A DNA stretch of 64,000 nucleotides from positions 16,308 to 80,307 of the forward strand of contig MWCM01000001.1 of assembly GCA_002070055.1 (NCBI GenBank), read 5' to 3'. This document shows positions 3,512 to 26,974 of this stretch, in pieces (the stretch's first letter is position 1; every line of letters starts with the position of its first letter). This DNA is from a bacterium ADurb.Bin212. Lineage in GTDB: Bacteria > Patescibacteriota > UBA1384 > XYA2-FULL-43-10. Under the pieces are notes generated by a model. That model made no database searches, had not been told where the DNA came from, and saw only the letters and a list, made by a program, of their open reading frames with translations. The position numbers were made by a program, and so were the translations under genes.

Positions 3512-4915
3512 ATGATTAGAACCAGATACGCACCCAGTCCGACGGGTGACCCGCACATCGGCAACATCCGGACTGCTCTTTTTGAGTATTTGTTCGCCAG
3601 ATCACAAGGTGGTGAGTTTTTGTTGCGTATAGAAGACACCGATCGCGAACGTTTTGTAGAGGGCGGGGTTGAGCGTATTGTAGAATCTCTCAAATGGCTT
3701 GGCATTACGCCGGATAATATTGGCAATTTTCCCTATCAATCGGAGCGGCTTGAAGTATATAAAAAGCATGCCTTTGATTTGGTGCGTTCTGGCTACGCCT
3801 ACATTTGCACCTGTAGCAAGGAGAAGCTGGCGGCAGACCACGAGCATCAGGCCAAGGAAGGCAAACCGCCGCGTTACGAGGGGCATTGTCGCACCTCTGA
3901 ATTTAATCTCAAAGATCTAAAAGAGGGTTGCTATGTGATACGCATGAAAATGCCAGAGAATCGCAAAATTATTGTTAGCGATTTGATTAAGGGCAAAGTA
4001 GAATTTGATACATCGCTTCTAGACGATCAGATTATTCTTAAAAGCGACGGCTTTCCTACCTATCATTTAGCTGTGGTTGTAGATGATACTGAGATGGGTA
4101 TTACACACGTGATCCGTGGCGACGAATGGCTCTCATCTACCCCTAAACATCTTTTGCTTTATGAATATTTTGGTTGGGAATCACCGCAGTTTGCTCATCT
4201 GCCGGTGATACTTGGACCGGATAAAAAGAAATTGTCCAAACGTCACGGTGCTACGAGCGCGCTAGGCTATAAAGATTTAGGCTATCTGCCCGAGGCAATA
4301 ATTAACTTTATGGCACTTCTTGGCTGGAATCCAAAAGATGAGCGCGAGGAATTTACGCTTTCTGAGCTTGAAAAAGAGTTTAAAATAGAAAATGTTAATA
4401 AGGCGCCAGCGGTATTTGATATAGAAAAGCTAAATAGCATCAACGCTCAAAAGATCAAGGATCAAATATTAAAAATCAAAACGACAGATAATAAATCTAA
4501 ATATCTGGATACTTTCGGAGTCGATGGTCTTAGAGAGGGCGAGTTGGATCTAATTGGTCGCGGAGGTTATAATACTCTAAAAGAGGCGGCGGATTATATC
4601 AAGAAACTTAGAGCCGGATCAGATTATGCACCAGAGATGCTAATCTTCCGTAAGTCAGACAAAGAAAGAACGCTAACGGGGTTGCAAAATGCAAGAAGTA
4701 AAATGCAACAACTAAACAAATGGGAAAATGACGAAATTCAAAATGCCTTATTGCAGGTCGTAACTGAAAATCAGCTATCAAACGGTGATGTTTTTTGGCC
4801 GGTTCGTGTTGCACTCTCCGGTGAAGAAAAATCACCAAGCCCTGTGGAGCTGGCAGTTGCGCTGGGCAAAGAGGAAACGCTTAAACGGGTGGAAGGGGCC
4901 ATAGATAAGCTATAA
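3512..4915 (+). CDS. gltX: glutamyl-tRNA synthetase
   Basis: MIRTRYAPSPTGDPHIGNIRTALF contains the HIGH motif; KLSKR is the KMSKS motif; length fits a class I GluRS. Start moved to ATG 3512; the track ORF extends upstream into the GC-rich gene. Confidence 0.85.
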   Translation: MIRTRYAPSPTGDPHIGNIRTALFEYLFARSQGGEFLLRIEDTDRERFVEGGVERIVESLKWLGITPDNIGNFPYQSERLEVYKKHAFDLVRSGYAYICTCSKEKLAADHEHQAKEGKPPRYEGHCRTSEFNLKDLKEGCYVIRMKMPENRKIIVSDLIKGKVEFDTSLLDDQIILKSDGFPTYHLAVVVDDTEMGITHVIRGDEWLSSTPKHLLLYEYFGWESPQFAHLPVILGPDKKKLSKRHGATSALGYKDLGYLPEAIINFMALLGWNPKDEREEFTLSELEKEFKIENVNKAPAVFDIEKLNSINAQKIKDQILKIKTTDNKSKYLDTFGVDGLREGELDLIGRGGYNTLKEAADYIKKLRAGSDYAPEMLIFRKSDKERTLTGLQNARSKMQQLNKWENDEIQNALLQVVTENQLSNGDVFWPVRVALSGEEKSPSPVELAVALGKEETLKRVEGAIDKL

Positions 4916-4925
4916 GGAGACTGTT

Positions 4926-5924
4926 ATGTCAGAGGAAGAGAAGAAAGAAGGGATCGGCGGGATTCCGACCGAACTATTGCCATATGATGCCGGCAATGAT
5001 GATTTGGTTATGGGCAGGCAGGAAATAATGCTTGGGGAGGAAAGAGCCTGTGTTTTGGACGCATACACCAAAGCCGGCAAGCCAAATAGGCCGAACGAGG
5101 ATGCTTACGCCATAGTTCAAAGTGGAGCCCAAAAAGAGTTGCTGACAGCAGGTGTCTTCGATGGGATCTCCAGCGTAGTAGACCTGCCTGACTTAAAAGG
5201 TGTTAAAGGCGCCAGATTCGCTTCTCATTTTATAAGAATGCGCTTTTTAGAGTTGGCGGGCAACCCCGATATCGGTTTAAAGGATTTAATGATCGAGCTT
5301 AATCGTCTTCTTGGTGAGGCCAATTCCCAGCTTGAGGGGGCAGATTTTGACAAGCCAAGCACAGTTCCATCAACCACCGCTACCATGGTAAGAGTTAATA
5401 CTGTAGAAAACAAGATTGAAATCGCGGACTGTGCCGATTCGATATGCTTGGTATTTTATAAGGACGGGAGTTCGAAAGTGCTTTCTTTTGATACTAACCT
5501 ATTTCATATGGATGGTGGTCTTAAAAAAATTAGACCAGAGGAGTACAAACAAGCCAAAGATGAGGGAAGAAATGTGGCATGGGGTTTTGATAACAAAAAC
5601 AATCCCAAAGATGGTACTTATGGCACAGGAGCATTAAACGGTTCGGAGATGTTTGAGAGATACATTATGTCCGACCAAATAGATTTAGATGGTGTCGAGG
5701 CAATTTTCATGTCGTCTGACGGTATGTTGCCTCCGGATCTATCACAGTATGCCCCGGAAGATCGCAGGCAAATGCTACAAATTTTAAGGGAAGGTGGATG
5801 TGCGGCTTTAAAGGAAAGAGTCAACCAGGCATTTGAGTCTGGAGATCAAAGCAAATGGACGAGGCCATCGAGTCCAGATGATGCAACCGGAGTCTTTATT
5901 GATCTGAAACAAGTAACTGAATAG
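4926..5924 (+). CDS. PP2C-family protein serine/threonine phosphatase-like
   Basis: PNEDAYAI and VFDGISS motifs resemble the PP2C metal-binding motifs; 332 aa. Confidence 0.5.
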   Translation: MSEEEKKEGIGGIPTELLPYDAGNDDLVMGRQEIMLGEERACVLDAYTKAGKPNRPNEDAYAIVQSGAQKELLTAGVFDGISSVVDLPDLKGVKGARFASHFIRMRFLELAGNPDIGLKDLMIELNRLLGEANSQLEGADFDKPSTVPSTTATMVRVNTVENKIEIADCADSICLVFYKDGSSKVLSFDTNLFHMDGGLKKIRPEEYKQAKDEGRNVAWGFDNKNNPKDGTYGTGALNGSEMFERYIMSDQIDLDGVEAIFMSSDGMLPPDLSQYAPEDRRQMLQILREGGCAALKERVNQAFESGDQSKWTRPSSPDDATGVFIDLKQVTE

Positions 5925-15159: not shown

Positions 15160-17760
15160 TTATCTATAGAACCGGTATTTTTTACTGTTTTTGACTATGT
15201 CCAAAACCGCGATTATCACAAACGAAACAACAATTGATATCAGCCAGTTTTGCCAGCCCAGAGGCACAGTTTCGAAGACTTTGTTTAGCGGGGTGTATAA
15301 GATAATTACAGCACCTATAATTGAACCGCTTGAGGCATAAACTAAATAGCGGTTACTTAAAAGATCAGAGCCTGCCACCGGCCATTTGAGAGAGCGGAAA
15401 TTAAAAGCGTTAGCTATTTGTAACATCATCAAAGTTAATAGCCCGGCAGTTCTTGAGAGAGTTATGTCTTCGGTTAATACCAGGTAGCTGTAATAGATGC
15501 TAATTGAGGCTATCATCAACACGAAGCCGGTGAAGAAAATCAAGCCATAAAGCTGAGGGGTAATAAGTTCTGCCCTGCGGCGCGGAGCTACCTTCATAAT
15601 ATCGCGGGAGGCGGGGTTAAACGCTAATGAAATTGCCGGCAGATCGTCGGTAACCAGATTTAAGAAAAGGATCTGGAGTGCTAAAAGCGGAAGAGGGAGA
15701 TTGAGAATTATGGCGACAAATATTATCAACAATTCTGATGCGTTACACGATAGCTGGTAGGTGATAAATTTGCGAATATTGTTGAAGATCATTCTGCCCT
15801 CAGAAATGGCGTTTACTATGGTGGCGAAGTTGTCGTCTTTGAGCGTTAAATCGGCCACATCTCGCGAAACATCAGTGCCGGCTATGCCCATGGCAACTCC
15901 GACATGCGCTTCTTTTAGGGCTGGCGAATCATTCACGCCGTCACCGGTCATGGTTACCACCTCGCCTCTGGCTTTGAGGGCTTTAACAATGCGTAGTTTG
16001 TGTTCCGGGCGGACTCTGGCAAATATGGCAATTTCCGGAACTATTGCTTTAAGTTCTTCATCGCTCATCTCATCAAGTTCGCTGCCGGTTATGGCTTTAC
16101 CGCTCAAGCCTATTTGGTGGGCGATAGAGTTGGCAGTATTAATATTATCGCCGGTAATCATTTTAACCTTAATCTTTGCTTGCTCTGCCATTTTGATTGC
16201 CTCTTTAACCTCCGGTTTAGGGGCATCTTCCATACCAACAATGCCGGCAAAGATTAGTTCATTATCAAGCGAAATGCTTTTACTTTCTCCATGTTTGTAG
16301 GCAAAAGCCACGGTGCGCAAACCTTTGTGGTTATACTGGTTATTCTTATCTAGAATATAATCCCTGTGGCCTTGGTGCAGTTCTACGATACGACCGTGGT
16401 TGTTGAATTTACTGCATCTGTCAAGGATTGTCTCTAATGCCCCTTTAACCAAGACTTCATATTTATTACCCTCTTTAATCATCACCGACATCATTTTGTG
16501 CCCTGAACCAAAAGGAATCTCCTCGACTCTCTGTTGGCTGAAAGACTCTTTATCTGCTCCGGTTTTGAGGGCGGAAACCAAAATGGCTGCTTCGGTGGCA
16601 CTGCCATTTATTTGCAGTTTTTGCTCATTTTCCTCTTTTTCCACGTAGGCATCGTTACAAACTAAAGCTATTTTGGTTAAAATATCCAAATCTTCATGTT
16701 CCCCAAAAACCATTTTTTTACCGTTAAAGTAAACATGTCCGTTTAAGTCATGACCTATGCCATCGACATGGTATTCGTTATCGTTAGTTAGAATCTTTTG
16801 TGCGGTCATTTTACCGGTGGTAATGGTGCCGGTTTTGTCGGAACAGATAACGGTTGTTTCGCCCAGAGTTTCAATAGTGGACATTCTGTTAACGATGGCA
16901 TTTTTCTTTGACATTCTATAGGCACCGGTGGCAAGGGCGGTGGTTAATACCAGCGGAAAACCTTCCGGTATGGCCGAAACAGACATTGCGATAATCACAA
17001 TCAGAATATCGACTATGCTGTGCTCCCCACCACGATCAAAAAAATACATAATAAGACCGGCGATAATTGAGGCTGATATACCGACTGTAGCCATAATTTT
17101 GGCAATTCGATCAACTTTTTTCTGCAGAGGCAGCTCTTTGTCGGTGCCGGATATTAGTTTGGCGATTTTACCGTATTCTGTATTCATGCCGGTGTGTAAG
17201 ACCTTGGCGGTTGCTTTGCCGCTTACAATAAAGGTGCCCATAAAGAGCTTATCTGCGTTTTCGGCTGATTGATTATTAATATCTGTGGATTTATGGACCT
17301 CTTTAGCTTCTCCGGTTAAGATCGACTCGTTAACCAGAAGGTCTTTTTGTTCAATTATCTGACAATCGGCAGGAACTCTTTCGCCATCTTTAAGCACAAT
17401 TATGTCGCCTGGTACAATCTGCTCGGTGGGAAGTCTTTTTAGCTTTCCATCCCGGTAGAGGTTGGTAAAAAGTAGAATGGCTTTTTTAAGTGAAGAGATG
17501 GCTTTCTCGGCTTTGTATTCCTGTATAAAGCCGGTGCCGATGATTACAACAATTACCACCAATATTGTGTAATAGGTTGAATCTTTGCCAACAGACCAAG
17601 ATATGATGGCAGCAGCCAATAGTAAGAATACTAAAAAGTTGCCTTTAATCTGCCGTAGCAAAATCTTTAGAGCTGAAAAACGGCTCGTCTCTTTTATGAG
17701 ATTCGGGCCGTATTTTTTATACTGTTCTTTTGCCTGGTGGCTGGATAAACCTATTTGCAT
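15160..17760 (-). CDS. cation-transporting P-type ATPase (P2-type, Ca2+/Mg2+-like)
   Basis: Phosphorylation motif CSDKTGTIT, plus TGDN and GDGVNDSPALK motifs, and 8-10 TM helices. Start moved to the ATG (MQIGL) 8 nt after a GGAGGG RBS; the track start is an upstream TTG. Confidence 0.85.
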   Translation of the reverse strand: MQIGLSSHQAKEQYKKYGPNLIKETSRFSALKILLRQIKGNFLVFLLLAAAIISWSVGKDSTYYTILVVIVVIIGTGFIQEYKAEKAISSLKKAILLFTNLYRDGKLKRLPTEQIVPGDIIVLKDGERVPADCQIIEQKDLLVNESILTGEAKEVHKSTDINNQSAENADKLFMGTFIVSGKATAKVLHTGMNTEYGKIAKLISGTDKELPLQKKVDRIAKIMATVGISASIIAGLIMYFFDRGGEHSIVDILIVIIAMSVSAIPEGFPLVLTTALATGAYRMSKKNAIVNRMSTIETLGETTVICSDKTGTITTGKMTAQKILTNDNEYHVDGIGHDLNGHVYFNGKKMVFGEHEDLDILTKIALVCNDAYVEKEENEQKLQINGSATEAAILVSALKTGADKESFSQQRVEEIPFGSGHKMMSVMIKEGNKYEVLVKGALETILDRCSKFNNHGRIVELHQGHRDYILDKNNQYNHKGLRTVAFAYKHGESKSISLDNELIFAGIVGMEDAPKPEVKEAIKMAEQAKIKVKMITGDNINTANSIAHQIGLSGKAITGSELDEMSDEELKAIVPEIAIFARVRPEHKLRIVKALKARGEVVTMTGDGVNDSPALKEAHVGVAMGIAGTDVSRDVADLTLKDDNFATIVNAISEGRMIFNNIRKFITYQLSCNASELLIIFVAIILNLPLPLLALQILFLNLVTDDLPAISLAFNPASRDIMKVAPRRRAELITPQLYGLIFFTGFVLMIASISIYYSYLVLTEDITLSRTAGLLTLMMLQIANAFNFRSLKWPVAGSDLLSNRYLVYASSGSIIGAVIILYTPLNKVFETVPLGWQNWLISIVVSFVIIAVLDIVKNSKKYRFYR

Positions 17761-17860
17761 ACAAAAAAATCCCTCCTGCAAAAATTATATCATAGTCGCG
17801 AGCAAATAGAGTGTGAATAAGTTTGTTTATACAAAAAAAGACAACGCGGTTGTCATTTTT

Positions 17861-17886
17861 CATGGTTCCGAGACTAGGAGTCGAAC
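17861..17886 (-). repeat. direct duplicate of the 3' end (T-arm and acceptor) of tRNA-Gln
   Basis: catggttccgagactaggagtcgaac is identical at 17861-17886 and 18015-18040. The 17861 copy has no matching 5' acceptor strand, so it is not an intact tRNA. Confidence 0.7.
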
Positions 17887-17988
17887 TCGCTTCGCTTCTA
17901 ACAACCGACTGTTTTTAGTGTTTTCCTGCAGCGGGAAACTCCCGTTTCCCGACCCCTTCCCAGGTTCGACATCCTGGAACCATAAAAA

Positions 17989-18014
17989 AAGATCATCTTA
18001 CGATGATCCCTTTT
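17989..18014. terminator. bidirectional hairpin terminator
   Basis: aaaaaaaGATCATCttacGATGATCcctttt: a 7-bp stem flanked by an A-run and a T-run. Confidence 0.5.
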
Positions 18015-18016
18015 CA

Positions 18017-18090
18017 TGGTTCCGAGACTAGGAGTCGAACCTAGATTGGCGGTGCCAGAAACCGCTGTCCTGCCATTAGACGATCTCGGA
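18017..18090 (-). tRNA. tRNA-Gln (anticodon CUG)
   Basis: The reverse complement folds as a cloverleaf: acceptor TCCGAGA/TCTCGGA, D-arm GTCT..GGAC, anticodon stem GCGGT/ACCGC with loop TTCTGGC (U33, CUG, G37), T-arm CTAGG-TTCGACT-CCTAG, and an encoded CCA. Confidence 0.75.
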
Positions 18091-18348
18091 ATATTTAATT
18101 TCAATCAGTAAATCTCTAATCTGTTGCCTTAGCAACCTTTTACCCTCGGAAGTTTTCAGAAACCTCTCTCTACGTTGAGCATCCGATTTGCACTTATAAA
18201 CTTCATAATGTACAAGCACGGGTTCTTTTCTCTTAGTAGATATAACCTTATTGGAAGCATGTTGGTTAATTCTCACTTTGAGATTGCTAGTTGAGCCCGT
18301 ATAGAGCTGATTCGTTTTTGTAAGATGAAGAATATAAACATAAAACAT
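18076..18348 (-). CDS. GIY-YIG nuclease family protein (small YhbQ/UPF0213-like)
   Basis: 90 aa; MFYVYILHLTKTNQLYTGSTSNLKVRINQH matches the GIY-YIG motif spacing. The last five codons and the TAA stop overlap the 5' acceptor/D-arm of tRNA-Gln. Confidence 0.65.
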   Translation of the reverse strand: MFYVYILHLTKTNQLYTGSTSNLKVRINQHASNKVISTKRKEPVLVHYEVYKCKSDAQRRERFLKTSEGKRLLRQQIRDLLIEIKYSEIV

Positions 18349-18484
18349 ATTAATTAGACCCTGTCATTCGACAGGGCCATATCGAATGATATGGCGATCT
18401 CGGAACAATAAAGCAATATTATCACTTTTATGGGCTTGATTCAATTGATATTGACAAATGATTATGGAATATATACTATTATGC

Positions 18485-18692
18485 TGTCGTATGTCGCAAG
18501 GGAGACAGGTCGTCCAACGACGTTTGTTGGATGATCCAACAGATGAGGTCCTCCGCAACCGTGGTGGATTATGGTCGCTTAAAGCGACCTCCTGTCTCCT
18601 CAATCTGGGACGCACGTCGCACAACGAGGCGAGTTACGGGTTCTCCCCCGTGATTCGCCTCAAATCATTTTGGGCCTTAAGGCTCTTTTTTT
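18485..18692 (+). ncRNA. candidate structured small RNA (unclassified), about 208 nt with its own promoter and terminator
   Basis: TTGACA at 18451-18456, with -10 TATACT/TACTAT 15-17 nt downstream. The transcribed segment is about 55 % GC in AT-rich context, with nested helices (gggagacagg...cctgtctcc; GGTCGC-UUAAA-GCGACC; gaggcga...tcgcctc; ccaacgacgtttgttgg). It ends in a GCCTTAAGGC hairpin plus T7 at 18672-18692, 35 nt before the RBS of the SIS gene. Confidence 0.5.
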
Positions 18693-18726
18693 GTGTTTTT
18701 GATATACTGTTTGTAAAAGGAGGCAA

Positions 18727-19767
18727 ATGGAACATGCAATGCTAAGAGAAATTAAAGAACAACCGGAGGTGCTTAGGCGCTTGGTTGGGTCTTGTAAACA
18801 TAGTTTTTTTGCTGAGGCAGTAACGCTTATTAGGGAGTCAATTAGTAATGGCGGACAAGTTGTTTTTTTGGGTAATGGCACGTCTTATCACTCTTGTATA
18901 TATGGGCAGTATCTTTTTTCGATCTCTAATCATGTAATTGTTAATATTTTTGATACGGCGGAGTTTGAGCCCTTTATAGAAAATTTAAATCAGAATGCAA
19001 CGGTAGTAATTGTTTCTCAGAGTGGTGAAACGGGGGATGCGTTAGAAATAATTCAAAAACTTGTCCCGAGTAAACCCGAGGGATCAAAAATTATCTCCAT
19101 AACTAATAATCCTAAATCGACTTTGGCCAGGGAATCGGATGTGGCAATAGACTTAATGTTGGGCGAAACCAATGCGATACCAAGCACAAAGGGCTATACC
19201 GCCGAGATGGCAACTTTCGCCTTGCTTTCTGATGGTATTAAAGAGAGCCAAAATTTTGCGGGTAAGGTTGAGACGATCGCAAAGGAGATGAAGAGAGTAA
19301 TCTTCGCAGAACACGAACAAATTAAAGCTCTTTCTGATAAATTAAAAAACCAACAGCTGATGTATGTTCTCGGCCATAGTATCGGTTTGTCAAATGCCTA
19401 CGAAGCGGCTTTGAAGATTAAAGAGTGTGCACACATACAAGCCGAGGGGTATTCTGGCCCAGAGTTCAGGCATGGTCCAAGTTCAATGATTGGCTACAGT
19501 ACTCCGGTTATTGTTTTCGCCCCGGATATCGAAAGTGAAGAGGATCTAAAAAGCGTGGTGGGCGAGGTTAAGCACTCTGGTGGCTATGTAATTGGGGTTG
19601 GATCAGAACATAGTCTCCATTATGATTTGCATTTAAAGACAATTGATGATTATTTGTATTCCCCCTTAACTGCCATTGTGCCTATTCAGTTATTGGCTTT
19701 TGAGTTGGCGATGACCAAGGGTCTTGACCCAGATAAGCCTATTGGAGTTAGGAAAGTGGTAGATTAG
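18727..19767 (+). CDS. SIS-domain phosphosugar isomerase (GlmS C-terminal-like or AgaS-like, two SIS domains)
   Basis: MLREIKEQPEVLRRL resembles the start of the GlmS isomerase half; two SIS motifs (VVFLGNGTSYHS; VIVSQSGETGDALE). No glutaminase domain. AAAGGAGG RBS. Confidence 0.65.
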   Translation: MEHAMLREIKEQPEVLRRLVGSCKHSFFAEAVTLIRESISNGGQVVFLGNGTSYHSCIYGQYLFSISNHVIVNIFDTAEFEPFIENLNQNATVVIVSQSGETGDALEIIQKLVPSKPEGSKIISITNNPKSTLARESDVAIDLMLGETNAIPSTKGYTAEMATFALLSDGIKESQNFAGKVETIAKEMKRVIFAEHEQIKALSDKLKNQQLMYVLGHSIGLSNAYEAALKIKECAHIQAEGYSGPEFRHGPSSMIGYSTPVIVFAPDIESEEDLKSVVGEVKHSGGYVIGVGSEHSLHYDLHLKTIDDYLYSPLTAIVPIQLLAFELAMTKGLDPDKPIGVRKVVD

Positions 19768-19895
19768 AGATCGGCGGATTCTCTCTTGGGCGAATTTTTA
19801 TAATAAGCGGCTTAACAGGTGTCTTTGTTTTGTCGCGGTTTTTATGTTGGGTTGACAATTTTAGTTATTGGGTTATAATAGAATTTCTCAAGGTT

Positions 19896-20012
19896 GGATT
19901 GCGGAAATCTAGGGCGGTCTTGACTTGCTCTGATCGGGCTTAGCCCATCCGCTCTAACCGACCTTGTTCACCTGGTCCCGCCGCCGCCGTTTGCGGCGGG
20001 ACCAATATTTTA
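19896..20012 (+). ncRNA. candidate small RNA B (about 117 nt, unclassified)
   Basis: Near-consensus promoter: TTGACA 19862-19867, 16 nt, TATAAT 19884-19889. GC-rich rod-like hairpin (AAGGUUGG...CCGACCUU enclosing GCGGA...UCCGC). Ends in a 10-bp GGTCCCGCCG/CGGCGGGACC terminator stem at 19974-20002, then a T-run. Confidence 0.45.
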
Positions 20013-21645: not shown

Positions 21646-22395
21646 TGCTCTTGTGTCTGCTCTCACAACCTCCACCCTTACTTCGCCTACTTTGGCCAGC
21701 GAGTAGGGTAGGGGCGTTACCAGTGTCACGGGCGGCTTTAGGCCCAGCGCGTGACTTGTTAGGTCAAAGCGCTTTACGGACTCGCAGCCCTGCATGTGGC
21801 GCTGAAGAGCTCGGCGTGAGCAGGTTGCCAACTCCTCTTTAAGGTCGAATGACCCTTTTCGTGTCCAGAGGTAGTCGGCAATCTCGGCCAACTCGGTACC
21901 CTTGGGTGGGATGAGGCGTAGCTCCAGCCTGCAGTGCAGGAAGGCTGAACCTCTGGCGATACTACAGCGCAGAGGCAGACTTAACCTAGACGGTAGGCGA
22001 TAGACCTTGCCATAACCCAAGCCCTCCATGATCTGTGCAACCTGCGGGTCCAGGCTGTGGCTTGTGGTTCCACCCGTGTACTCTACTGTGGCGTAGCTTT
22101 CTCTTGCGGTCTGCACCACAATGAAGCGCTTGACCCCGGCGTCACGCAGGGCCAGGTGCTGGCTGCGTCTGGCTACTTCGGCGATCATACCGCCGAGGCT
22201 GGAAACAACTCGCCATAACAGCCAGAATGCGACAACGCCAAACCCCACTCTCTGCCATGTTGCAATCGCCAGCAGTGCCGTGAAGACACCGAAGACGATA
22301 TTATTGCACAGGGTAATAAACCTCACGACGCCCGCAGCCGTCTTGAGGTGATTGAAGGCAGAAACCCTCAGTTCGTCCAAACCGTGATTCTCCAA
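21631..22395 (-). CDS. hypothetical two-TM membrane protein with an Arg-rich cytoplasmic domain (GC-rich island)
   Basis: Start reassigned to TTG 22395, 8 nt after an AAAGGAGG RBS and downstream of a TTTACA-17-TATATT promoter-like sequence. The track ORF extends into AT-rich upstream DNA. Two TM helices, then a roughly 170-aa domain with no motif I recognise. About 60 % GC. Confidence 0.4.
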   Translation of the reverse strand: MENHGLDELRVSAFNHLKTAAGVVRFITLCNNIVFGVFTALLAIATWQRVGFGVVAFWLLWRVVSSLGGMIAEVARRSQHLALRDAGVKRFIVVQTARESYATVEYTGGTTSHSLDPQVAQIMEGLGYGKVYRLPSRLSLPLRCSIARGSAFLHCRLELRLIPPKGTELAEIADYLWTRKGSFDLKEELATCSRRALQRHMQGCESVKRFDLTSHALGLKPPVTLVTPLPYSLAKVGEVRVEVVRADTRAQTRR

Positions 22396-26824: not shown

Positions 26825-26899
26825 GGCGCCATCGTCTAGAGGCTAGGACGCCGCCCTCTCACGGCGGTAACAGGGGTTCGATTCCCCTTGGCGCTACCA
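26825..26899 (+). tRNA. tRNA-Glu (anticodon CUC)
   Basis: GGCGCCATCGTCTAGAGGCTAGGACGCCGCCCTCTCACGGCGGTAACAGGGGTTCGATTCCCCTTGGCGCTACCA folds as a cloverleaf (anticodon loop CUCUCAC). The D-arm is near-identical to canonical tRNA-Glu. TTGTCA-17-TAGAAT promoter upstream and a hairpin plus T-run downstream. Confidence 0.85.
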
Positions 26900-26974
26900 T
26901 GAAAAGCGCATCACTTCGGTGGTGCTTTTTTCATGGTAAGGGGGATCGAACGGAGGTGTCTATAAGAGAGTGGA

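Follow-up and report, generated by a model that had tools for sequence, protein, structure and literature searches.

A tRNA-Gln(CTG) gene of the Patescibacteriota bacterium ADurb.Bin212 carries a different small insert on each of its two sides. The gene lies within a stretch of 64,000 nucleotides (nt) of contig MWCM01000001.1 (assembly GCA_002070055.1), referred to below as the window. The 5' insert is a cassette built around an open reading frame (ORF) of 90 amino acids (aa) that encodes a GIY-YIG nuclease, and the 3' insert, at 17857-17990, is a copy of a non-coding element with a conserved structure, about 125 nt long and called here the core element. Both families live in tRNA genes of Patescibacteria-type genomes, and both keep the tRNA intact by depositing a partial duplicate of it at the other end of the insert. 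The explanation favoured here, with somewhat better than even confidence, is that both inserts are selfish elements exploiting breaks in tRNA-gene DNA, one functional tRNA gene having been colonised on each side by a different one.

The order of features is best read on the minus strand, from 18405 down to 17833. A pseudo-tRNA 5' piece, a double hairpin, the hexamer TCTAAT and the 90-aa ORF precede the tRNA gene; TGAAAA, a terminator-like hairpin, an inverted copy of the tRNA end, a 66-nt core, GCGAAGCGA, a direct 30-nt copy of the tRNA end and a second terminator follow it (Table 1). Copies of the tRNA 3' end had been noticed at this gene in the original prediction, which described an exact direct repeat of 26 nt. 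The direct repeat is indeed exact but extends over 30 nt (TTTTCATGGTTCCGAGACTAGGAGTCGAAC on the plus strand), comprising the last 24 nt of the tRNA (positions ~55-76) and 6 nt of trailer; its 24-nt version has two matches in the window, compared with none expected from 100 shuffles. The inverted copy is also real but weaker. Its degenerate sequence, AGGTTCGAC(A)TCCT at 17962-17975 of the plus strand, scores 21, compared with 13.7 ± 2.3 for shuffled tRNAs (5 of 500 shuffles do as well), which is modest alone. The GGAACCA that comes after the inverted T-loop copy doubles as the 3' arm of an extended terminator hairpin. Two features had been overlooked: the recurrence of the tRNA 5' end upstream of the ORF, together with its 36-nt double hairpin, and the high conservation of the 66-nt stretch that separates the inverted from the direct 3' copy. 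Two other assemblies hold the same locus, in the same arrangement, at 99.6-100% identity.

The identity of the distal 30 nt with the tRNA end could be taken for the outcome of a tandem tRNA-Gln duplication with a decayed distal copy, but this explanation is refuted and retains practically no likelihood. Neither ARAGORN nor Rfam calls a second tRNA at 17861-17950, the first 50 nt of the tRNA have no significant similarity to that segment (204 of 500 shuffles do as well), and the segment is a conserved core shared with loci at other tRNAs.

Table 1. Features of the tRNA-Gln(CTG) locus, in the order of transcription of the tRNA (positions are those of the window)
Feature	Positions	Strand	Description
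Pseudo-tRNA 5' fragment, part 1	18395-18405	-	TTCCGAGATCG, equal to tRNA-Gln nt -1 to 10; upstream of the GIY-YIG ORF; direct repeat with 18081-18091
Double hairpin, 36 nt	18359-18394	-	CCATATC-ATTC-GATATGG and CCCTGTC-GAAT-GACAGGG; splits the pseudo-tRNA between nt 10 and 11
Pseudo-tRNA 5' fragment, part 2	18353-18358	-	TCTAAT, equal to tRNA nt 11-16, just before the ORF start region; read from the sequence; also in L006
GIY-YIG nuclease ORF, 90 aa	18076-18348	-	Catalytic domain only (PF01541); stop codon within tRNA-Gln
tRNA-Gln(CTG), intact	18017-18090	-	CCA encoded; ARAGORN; Rfam RF00005 (57.3 bits)
Upstream direct copy (X_up)	18011-18040	-	30 nt: tRNA ~55-76 and trailer TGAAAA; repeated downstream
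Terminator-like hairpin	17991-18008	-	Between tRNA and core element; its T-run (17983-17990) falls in the adjoining inverted copy
Inverted copy of tRNA trailer, CCA end and T-loop	17962-17990	-	UUUUUUUAUGGUUCC-AGGAUGUCGAACCU; 6-nt internal deletion
Conserved core	17896-17961	-	GGGAAGGGGUC, helix P2 (GGGAAAC-GGGA-GUUUCCC), purine-rich linker, P3 hairpin; covariance model R1
3' end of the core element	17887-17895	-	GCGAAGCGA, GCGAAGC mini-hairpin motif; recurs before the downstream copy in many family members
Downstream direct copy (X_down)	17857-17886	-	tRNA T-loop to 3' end and 6 nt of trailer; exact repeat of X_up
Intrinsic terminator after the distal copy	17833-17854	-	GACAACCGCGTTGTC and T7

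A structured element at tRNA 3' ends

The DNA enclosed by the 3' copies had been suspected to be a remnant or miniature element, and the partial tRNA copies do bound a small insert, whose conserved unit occurs at more than 100 loci elsewhere. A covariance model of the core (R1) has a single match in the 64 kb, coinciding with the 66 nt (75.1 bits, E = 2.5e-17). The family was collected with the 20-mer GGGAAGGGGTCGGGAAACGG as seed, by exact matches in GTDB species genomes. At least 120 such genomes contain it, nearly all of them Patescibacteria, with a few metagenome-assembled genomes (MAGs) labelled as Bdellovibrionales, Gammaproteobacteria and others. Counts given below over 120 core loci are counts among the matches listed, and loci in other genomes are designated by L numbers.

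A tRNA on the same strand ends 17-270 nt (mostly 17-77 nt) upstream of the core in 87 of these 120 copies, and all 20 amino-acid identities are represented. A copy starts with the tRNA, in many cases followed by a hairpin; then come the T-loop of that same tRNA in inverted form, the core and a hairpin that varies, and finally the tRNA 3' end once more, in direct orientation. At least 13 of the last 16 nt of the tRNA are found again downstream of the core in 65 of 86 copies. In 57 of those 65, the left edge of the duplication is 15-20 nt short of the tRNA end, i.e., in the T-loop at about nt 57/58, and the duplication mostly extends 0-8 nt beyond the end. Across the family, the inverted T-arm copies are cognate-specific, matching their own tRNA at 10.0 of 13 positions, compared with 8.3 ± 0.16 for permuted tRNAs. 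With a core containing both P2 and P3, an inverted copy on one side and a direct copy on the other, the window holds a full member of this tRNA-3'-flank core family, as defined here. The relatives found through the nuclease ORF (L004, L006 and L007, at 72-77% identity) lead to the same region, the sequence 3' of the tRNA being conserved in L006 and L007.

The core has the signature of a conserved RNA structure. Helix P3 shows double-sided changes at all nine of its pairs in the R1 alignment, with 216 compensatory cells, compared with 62 ± 9 after shuffling (0 of 500 shuffles do as well), and 93.6% of the cells are paired, compared with at most 61.5% when the partner strand is slid. The sequence of P2 is almost invariant; its loop is mostly GGGA or GGAA (GNRA-type), with GGUA in some copies, and the G-U variants of this helix argue that the sense strand of the core is that of the tRNA. 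The element corresponds to no Rfam 15 family at the locus, small ribozymes included (nothing at E ≤ 5 in window positions 16500-20000), and nothing from Rfam covers the core in eight other loci at E ≤ 1. A match to sX4 in L030 is due to the tRNA-Ser contained in that model, the core part being poorly aligned. A reading of GGAUUCGAAC-AGGGA as related to transfer-messenger RNA (tmRNA) was likewise rejected: this sequence is the reverse complement of the cognate T-loop, and no tmRNA is found by ARAGORN or Rfam.

The origin of the direct repeat was originally sought in site-specific integration at the tRNA 3' end, the two copies forming an attL/attR scar after loss of most of an island. Williams is said to have described, in 2002, islands and prophages that reside in tRNA genes and are bounded by such partial tRNA copies. 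The locus resembles them in its repeat, which starts at the T-loop and leaves one intact and one partial tRNA; integration of the T-loop type classically leaves a direct repeat of this extent, up to the 3' end of the tRNA, and here it is an exact one of 30 nt. Partial tRNA genes derived from kilobase-scale islands are, moreover, common (PMC9897764). Nevertheless, this origin is largely refuted and has become very improbable. No integrase is present in the window neighbourhood, and none of the families that recur within 3 kb of the 120 core loci is an integrase, a transposase or a reverse transcriptase; the most recurrent neighbour there is a small GIY-YIG gene (9 loci). The known islands are of kilobase scale, encode a tyrosine integrase, and owe their repeat to the identity of attP and attB. 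In contrast, the element described here measures about 125 nt, and what its repeats enclose is always the structured core of about 66 nt, mostly at 17-77 nt from the tRNA, and never a kilobase-scale island. Identity with an attP site cannot explain why flanks matching 20 different tRNA identities surround one universal core. Neither the additional inverted copy of the target nor the occurrence of the same architecture at the ends of protein genes fits such a scar.

Two further origins were discarded. A phage source finds no backing in IMG/VR, where the 20-mer GGGAAGGGGTCGGGAAACGG is not present. Reverse transcription of a mature tRNA disagrees with the copies themselves, which have no CCA where the gene has none and in some cases enter the trailer.

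The family also shows variation in copy number. R1 detects extra copies inside several 8-kb blocks: L013 contains three cores (323-386, 2130-2192 and 4488-4550), and L009, L040, L085 and L091 contain two each, located at neighbouring tRNA genes a few kilobases apart. Tandem or nested partial tRNAs with cores occur in L040, L046/L047 and L058. In addition, an insert of about 75 nt common to L034 (~5190-5270) and L047 (860-932 region) is nested in the core, with the sequence ..TGAGGAGTGATGTTATCATTCCGCAAGACCTTGAACG..GAAAGGTGTACAG..CTGTAAGG. It sits at two positions, the P2 loop and P3, and suggests another miniature element.

A nuclease cassette joined to tRNA genes

The ORF on the 5' side had been described as a GIY-YIG nuclease gene that terminates inside the tRNA, and both points stand. 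Residues 1-70 of the protein match PF01541 with 53.6 bits (cutoff 22.6, E = 2.9e-14), and the last five codons and the stop overlap the tRNA by 15 nt. In an alignment of 45 sequences including the window protein, Y5, Y16, G18, R26, H30 and E61 are invariant; Y5, Y16, R26, H30 and E61 are presumed to be catalytic, from what is known of I-TevI and UvrC. The 149 homologues, mostly from the candidate phyla radiation, are 83-100 aa long, and the gene is single-copy in the window. Lacking a stop of its own, the ORF continues into the tRNA until one occurs, ending in KYSEIV in the window and, for example, in GPLA at a tRNA-Ala in L087. With the stop placed in the tRNA, RNase P processing of a co-transcript would be expected, from the sequence, to strip the stop codon from the mRNA.

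The tight coupling of nuclease and tRNA gene proves meaningful and not a product of chance. A metagenome scan with the 45-homologue alignment gave 80 loci at 52-72% identity. By strict scoring, 65 of the 80 relatives are fused to a tRNA gene, a number that rises to about 74 when loci identified by inspection are included; a further three reach the edge of their contig. In the more frequent arrangement, (a), the ORF lies upstream of the tRNA: at 58 of the 80 loci a same-strand tRNA starts between -40 and +150 nt from the stop codon, often overlapping it, and these tRNAs span 21 different anticodons. The first 11 nt of the tRNA recur (at least 9 of 11) within 130 nt upstream of the ORF in 31 of 55 cases, compared with 0 of 55 for a control region. 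This upstream pseudo-tRNA extends to the D-loop, to anticodon positions 34/35 or to T-loop positions 53-57, or is complete, and its break is occupied by one to three hairpins centred on TC-NNNN-GA. The same pattern is also found beside tRNA-Ala, tRNA-Asn and tRNA-Met in core-bearing genomes.

The window cassette conforms to this description. Its TTCCGAGATCG copy upstream of the ORF is arranged in the same way in L004, L006 and L007, and follows each genome's own tRNA, with A6 in the window and G6 in L004. The double hairpin folds more stably than expected (z = -3.1) and is kept, with compensatory stem changes, in the same three relatives. At tRNA-Gln(CTG) the occurrence of the gene is sporadic, as for Seg-type genes: it is present in the window, L004, L006, L007 and L016, and not in L056.

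In arrangement (b), the ORF lies downstream of an intact tRNA. It comprises about 12 of the remaining loci by inspection (L134, L138, L142, L144, L148, L151, L160, L176, L182, L188, L193 and L199), or 9 of 80 by strict scoring. The ATG is 0-23 nt past the tRNA end in most of them, and 77 nt past it in L199. The ORF is followed by GGTTCG, the double hairpin, and (A)ATCC up to the 3' end, so that the hairpins lie exactly between T-loop nt 57 and 58, and the tRNA-end copy after them is 18-22 nt long.

TC-NNNN-GA hairpins reach 5.7 per kb in the flanks of the 80 homologous ORFs, compared with 0.06 per kb inside the ORFs (a 93-fold difference), and their loops are paired as complements (ATTC/GAAT, ATCC/GGAT). 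The hairpin centre TCATTCGA has four exact matches in the window, compared with 2.4 expected; two of them are in the double hairpin, one per strand, with the remaining two at 21845 and 23579.

The only experimentally characterised analogue found is SegB of phage T4, a free-standing GIY-YIG homing endonuclease encoded in a tRNA gene cluster and cloned on a 687-bp fragment (PMC2330249). Its recognition sequence opens with the T-loop motif GGTTCRANTCC, and the cut lies immediately behind CCAR at the 3' end of the tRNA (PMC2330249). Both systems combine a GIY-YIG gene positioned amid or directly beside tRNA genes with a wide choice of potential tRNA targets, and the two landmarks of SegB, the T-loop motif and the tRNA end, bound the duplications of arrangement (b) and of the core element. 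The footprints at T-loop 57/58 and at tRNA ends are consistent with Seg-type cleavage, at or near the insertion point, of alleles that have no such gene. However, the phage protein is about twice the size of the one described here, which is a 90-aa catalytic domain on a bacterial chromosome, known from sequence. Moreover, no pseudo-tRNA or double-hairpin flank has been described for segB.

Independence and probable origin of the two inserts

The ORF and the 3' repeats had been treated as parts of one feature. They belong in fact to two independent elements: the core occurs at none of the 80 GIY-YIG loci, which rules out a linkage in cis, and a GIY-YIG gene lies directly upstream of the tRNA at 7 of the 120 core loci. 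The combinations seen at tRNA-Gln(CTG) illustrate this independence, with the GIY-YIG gene alone in L004, the core alone in L056, and both in the window, L006 and L016; L007 has the cassette and the start of a core up to its contig end. The locus is therefore a coincidence of two tRNA-associated inserts on one gene, and not a composite feature.

The favoured explanation, that of two selfish elements, can be laid out as follows. The 5' insert would be a free-standing, SegB-like GIY-YIG cassette, composed of pseudo-tRNA nt 1-16, double hairpin and ORF, driven from the upstream region of the tRNA and running into the intact gene. Its nuclease would nick or cut tRNA-gene DNA at exposed loops, chiefly at T-loop 57/58, and at tRNA ends; its substrates may be extruded arm hairpins or the double hairpin, with the cuts placed in loops. 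Repair would then copy the cassette and duplicate part of the tRNA, leaving one intact and one partial copy. The 3' insert, with its hairpin, inverted T-loop/3'-end copy, 66-nt core and direct copy of tRNA nt 58-76 plus trailer, would behave as a non-autonomous relative, which may exploit these breaks in trans. A footprint from the T-loop to the 3' end is common to the core element and to the GIY-YIG cassettes located downstream of tRNAs.

Several observations weigh against this explanation. No filled/empty pair was found among close relatives, the only near-identical contigs (99.6%) keeping the same arrangement, and mobility is thus deduced from distribution. Since fine details of the inverted arm, e.g., an extra T in the inverted T-loop, are common to the copies of the window and L016, the insertion in question is old and vertically inherited. 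Since the core and the GIY-YIG gene are unlinked, any dependence of one on the other would have to act in trans. Seg-type enzymes such as SegB, and also I-TevI, carry a DNA-binding part, whereas Pfam finds only the catalytic domain in the 90-aa protein, with no C-terminal DNA-binding domain. Similarity to SegB is confined to the GIY-YIG domain (TIGR01453, E = 3e-4, below the cutoff). The closest solved relative is an uncharacterised protein of the UPF0213 family (COG2827; PDB 1zg2, BH0048), a family that had been proposed for comparison. It is alike in its 90-100 aa and its sole GIY-YIG domain, but the match is weak (E = 0.008) and the entry gives neither a function nor a link to tRNA.

Core copies located away from tRNA genes add to these objections, as such gene ends contain no T-loop at all. 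At least nine copies are found at the 3' ends of protein genes, mostly rplL (L021, L066, L097, L102, L114, L119 and L124; other genes in L086, L054, L025 and L083), with a layout of gene end, hairpin, inverted copy across the left edge, core, and second copy. The second copy encodes the last ~9 residues of that genome's own protein, followed by a stop, with most wobble positions changed. Over eight loci, 16 codons are identical, 47 synonymous and 9 non-synonymous, and the two copies agree at 6-9 of 9 residues, compared with a shuffled maximum of 4-5. L083 is a young case, with near-identical copies, and in L119 and L124 the second copy has no stop codon. The decay of a target duplication does not predict synonymous recoding, which hints at a retained function. 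The recoded copies suggest that they are expressed in some state (through intron-like removal or reversible excision), or that they act as a guide kept matched with an upstream rescue copy, or that another constraint operates. Adenine mutagenesis of the kind caused by diversity-generating retroelements was considered as a source of the recoding and set aside as not diagnostic, the codon pairs having been judged by eye; since codons ending in A are used in the upstream copies, most differences are located at wobble A.

One way of accounting for this recoding is to regard the core element not as selfish DNA but as a cis-acting structured RNA, kept for its function where strongly expressed genes end (tRNAs, rplL). 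The antisense arm would base-pair over a defined site in the upstream RNA and the 3' arm would be a spare gene end, in a 3'-end replacement resembling intron or trans-splicing, or in an alternative means of 3'-end formation or termination. An antisense arm followed by a core and a 'second exon' is generally known as the design of trans-splicing ribozymes. The retained peptide and stop in protein-gene copies, the predominance of synonymous changes, the covariation of P3, the mostly GNRA-type P2 loop, and the presence of rplL-linked copies in both Saccharibacteria and Paceibacteria MAGs all argue for such a role. Where the element is linked to a tRNA, X_down has 97% identity with it in the stem-forming part, and T-loop nt 58-60 differ in 29%; the 8 stem substitutions in 252 positions are too few to judge whether tRNA pairing has been kept. 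This role is nonetheless unlikely, if well worth weighing. A core of 66-100 nt is far smaller than known self-splicing ribozymes and contains no recognised catalytic motif, the T-stem strand CCAAG of X_down in L006 would break two pairs with the resident tRNA, and the missing stops of L119 and L124 fit poorly. Moreover, the upstream copy is already a complete gene, which leaves the need for a second one not evident, and most tRNAs of these genomes do without the element.

A guide RNA, comparable to an omega-RNA or bridge RNA, is another candidate. The core and its 3' flank would direct a nuclease or recombinase encoded elsewhere, and the element would home into empty alleles, with the recoded upstream copy as a rescue. 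The likeness of the element to omega-RNAs, bridge RNAs and trans-splicing group I ribozymes is architectural, lying in a conserved scaffold joined to short locus-specific segments complementary or identical to the target. In the core element the scaffold stands directly before 16-27 nt that match the native gene end, and the antisense arm spans the junction. In addition, the upstream copy of protein genes is wobble-changed throughout, with both copies tracking lineage-specific peptide variants. However, no TnpB, IscB or IS110-type gene is enriched near the 120 core loci, and Rfam detects no group I core. Elements of the IS200/IS605-TnpB or IS110 kind also find no counterpart in the sequence left of the duplication, which differs between tRNA and protein-gene loci, and no target-adjacent motif is common to tRNA T-loops and rplL ends. 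At tRNA genes the upstream copy is identical and cannot be recoded, and the element would consequently target its own locus. Such a guide function is accordingly considered improbable.

A bolder proposal, ventured here tentatively and rated unlikely as well, is that the core represents a new, self-programmed RNA element. Its target-copied antisense arm would mark the site and its 3' arm would replace the gene end, either by splicing or exchanging RNA 3' ends or by homing in DNA with a recoded rescue, and the GIY-YIG proteins would serve as structure-specific nickases that open tRNA-gene loops for it. This would explain why the second copy at rplL and other protein genes encodes the same peptide and stop, yet with nearly all wobble positions changed.

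Returning to the preferred selfish origin, small mobile elements offer a last comparison. Non-autonomous miniature elements such as miniature inverted-repeat transposable elements (MITEs) and PATE-like elements are, similarly to the core element, small, non-coding and structured, with several copies per genome and repeated target flanks. In contrast to them, the core element has no fixed terminal inverted repeats, its inverted repeats being copied from each target, and it duplicates 17-30 nt or more, one edge being fixed at T-loop ~58. No partner transposase was found. Neither insert was found described in the open-access full-text literature (PMC, bioRxiv). Selfish elements that target tRNA genes are already known, and both inserts would be new variants of them; that the core is categorically new is a real possibility.

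Large islands and, in phage T4, a single GIY-YIG homing nuclease are known to settle in tRNA genes. In Patescibacteria, a very large and mostly uncultured radiation, these genes host two further, abundant kinds of tiny insert, neither of which matches an Rfam family. If selfish, these constitute a compact model of homing into essential single-copy RNA genes without host death, by means of a partial target duplication, and would systematically bring pseudo-tRNA fragments and spurious ORFs into MAG annotation. Should the core be a working RNA, the recoded gene-end copies would point to a new type of 3'-end replacement at the RNA or DNA level. Under either reading, the 66-nt core with its covarying helix is a candidate new RNA family, while the 90-aa nuclease is a candidate minimal enzyme acting on tRNA-gene DNA.

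Neighbouring features of the window

The locus is bordered in the window by genes for a P-type ATPase and a SIS protein. A scan for sigma-70 promoters around the cassette gave four matches, compared with 2.2 expected, which is not above chance. Elsewhere in the window, at tRNA-Glu(CTC) (26825-26960), the tRNA end is followed by a similar series, CCA-TGAAAA-hairpin-TTTTTTCATGG, whose 3' arm re-pairs with the CCA end of the tRNA, as at tRNA-Gln. A second core was considered there, given an inverted T-loop-like GGGGGATCGAAC after the terminator, but the covariance model sees none; an apparent 3' copy falls inside the coding region of a response regulator and is probably due to chance.

Between the cassette and the SIS-domain gene, positions 18480-18700 of the plus strand form a very strong structure (minimum free energy -102.7 kcal/mol, z = -8.7), preceded by the best promoter match of the region (TTGACA-17-TACTAT at 18451-18479). 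This segment matches no Rfam family and is unannotated, and could be a non-coding RNA or a leader of about 200 nt. Its fold comprises a closing stem of ~10 bp (18501-18514/18586-18599) around four hairpins, a 15-bp hairpin (18626-18661), and a terminator at 18672-18685 followed by a T-run.

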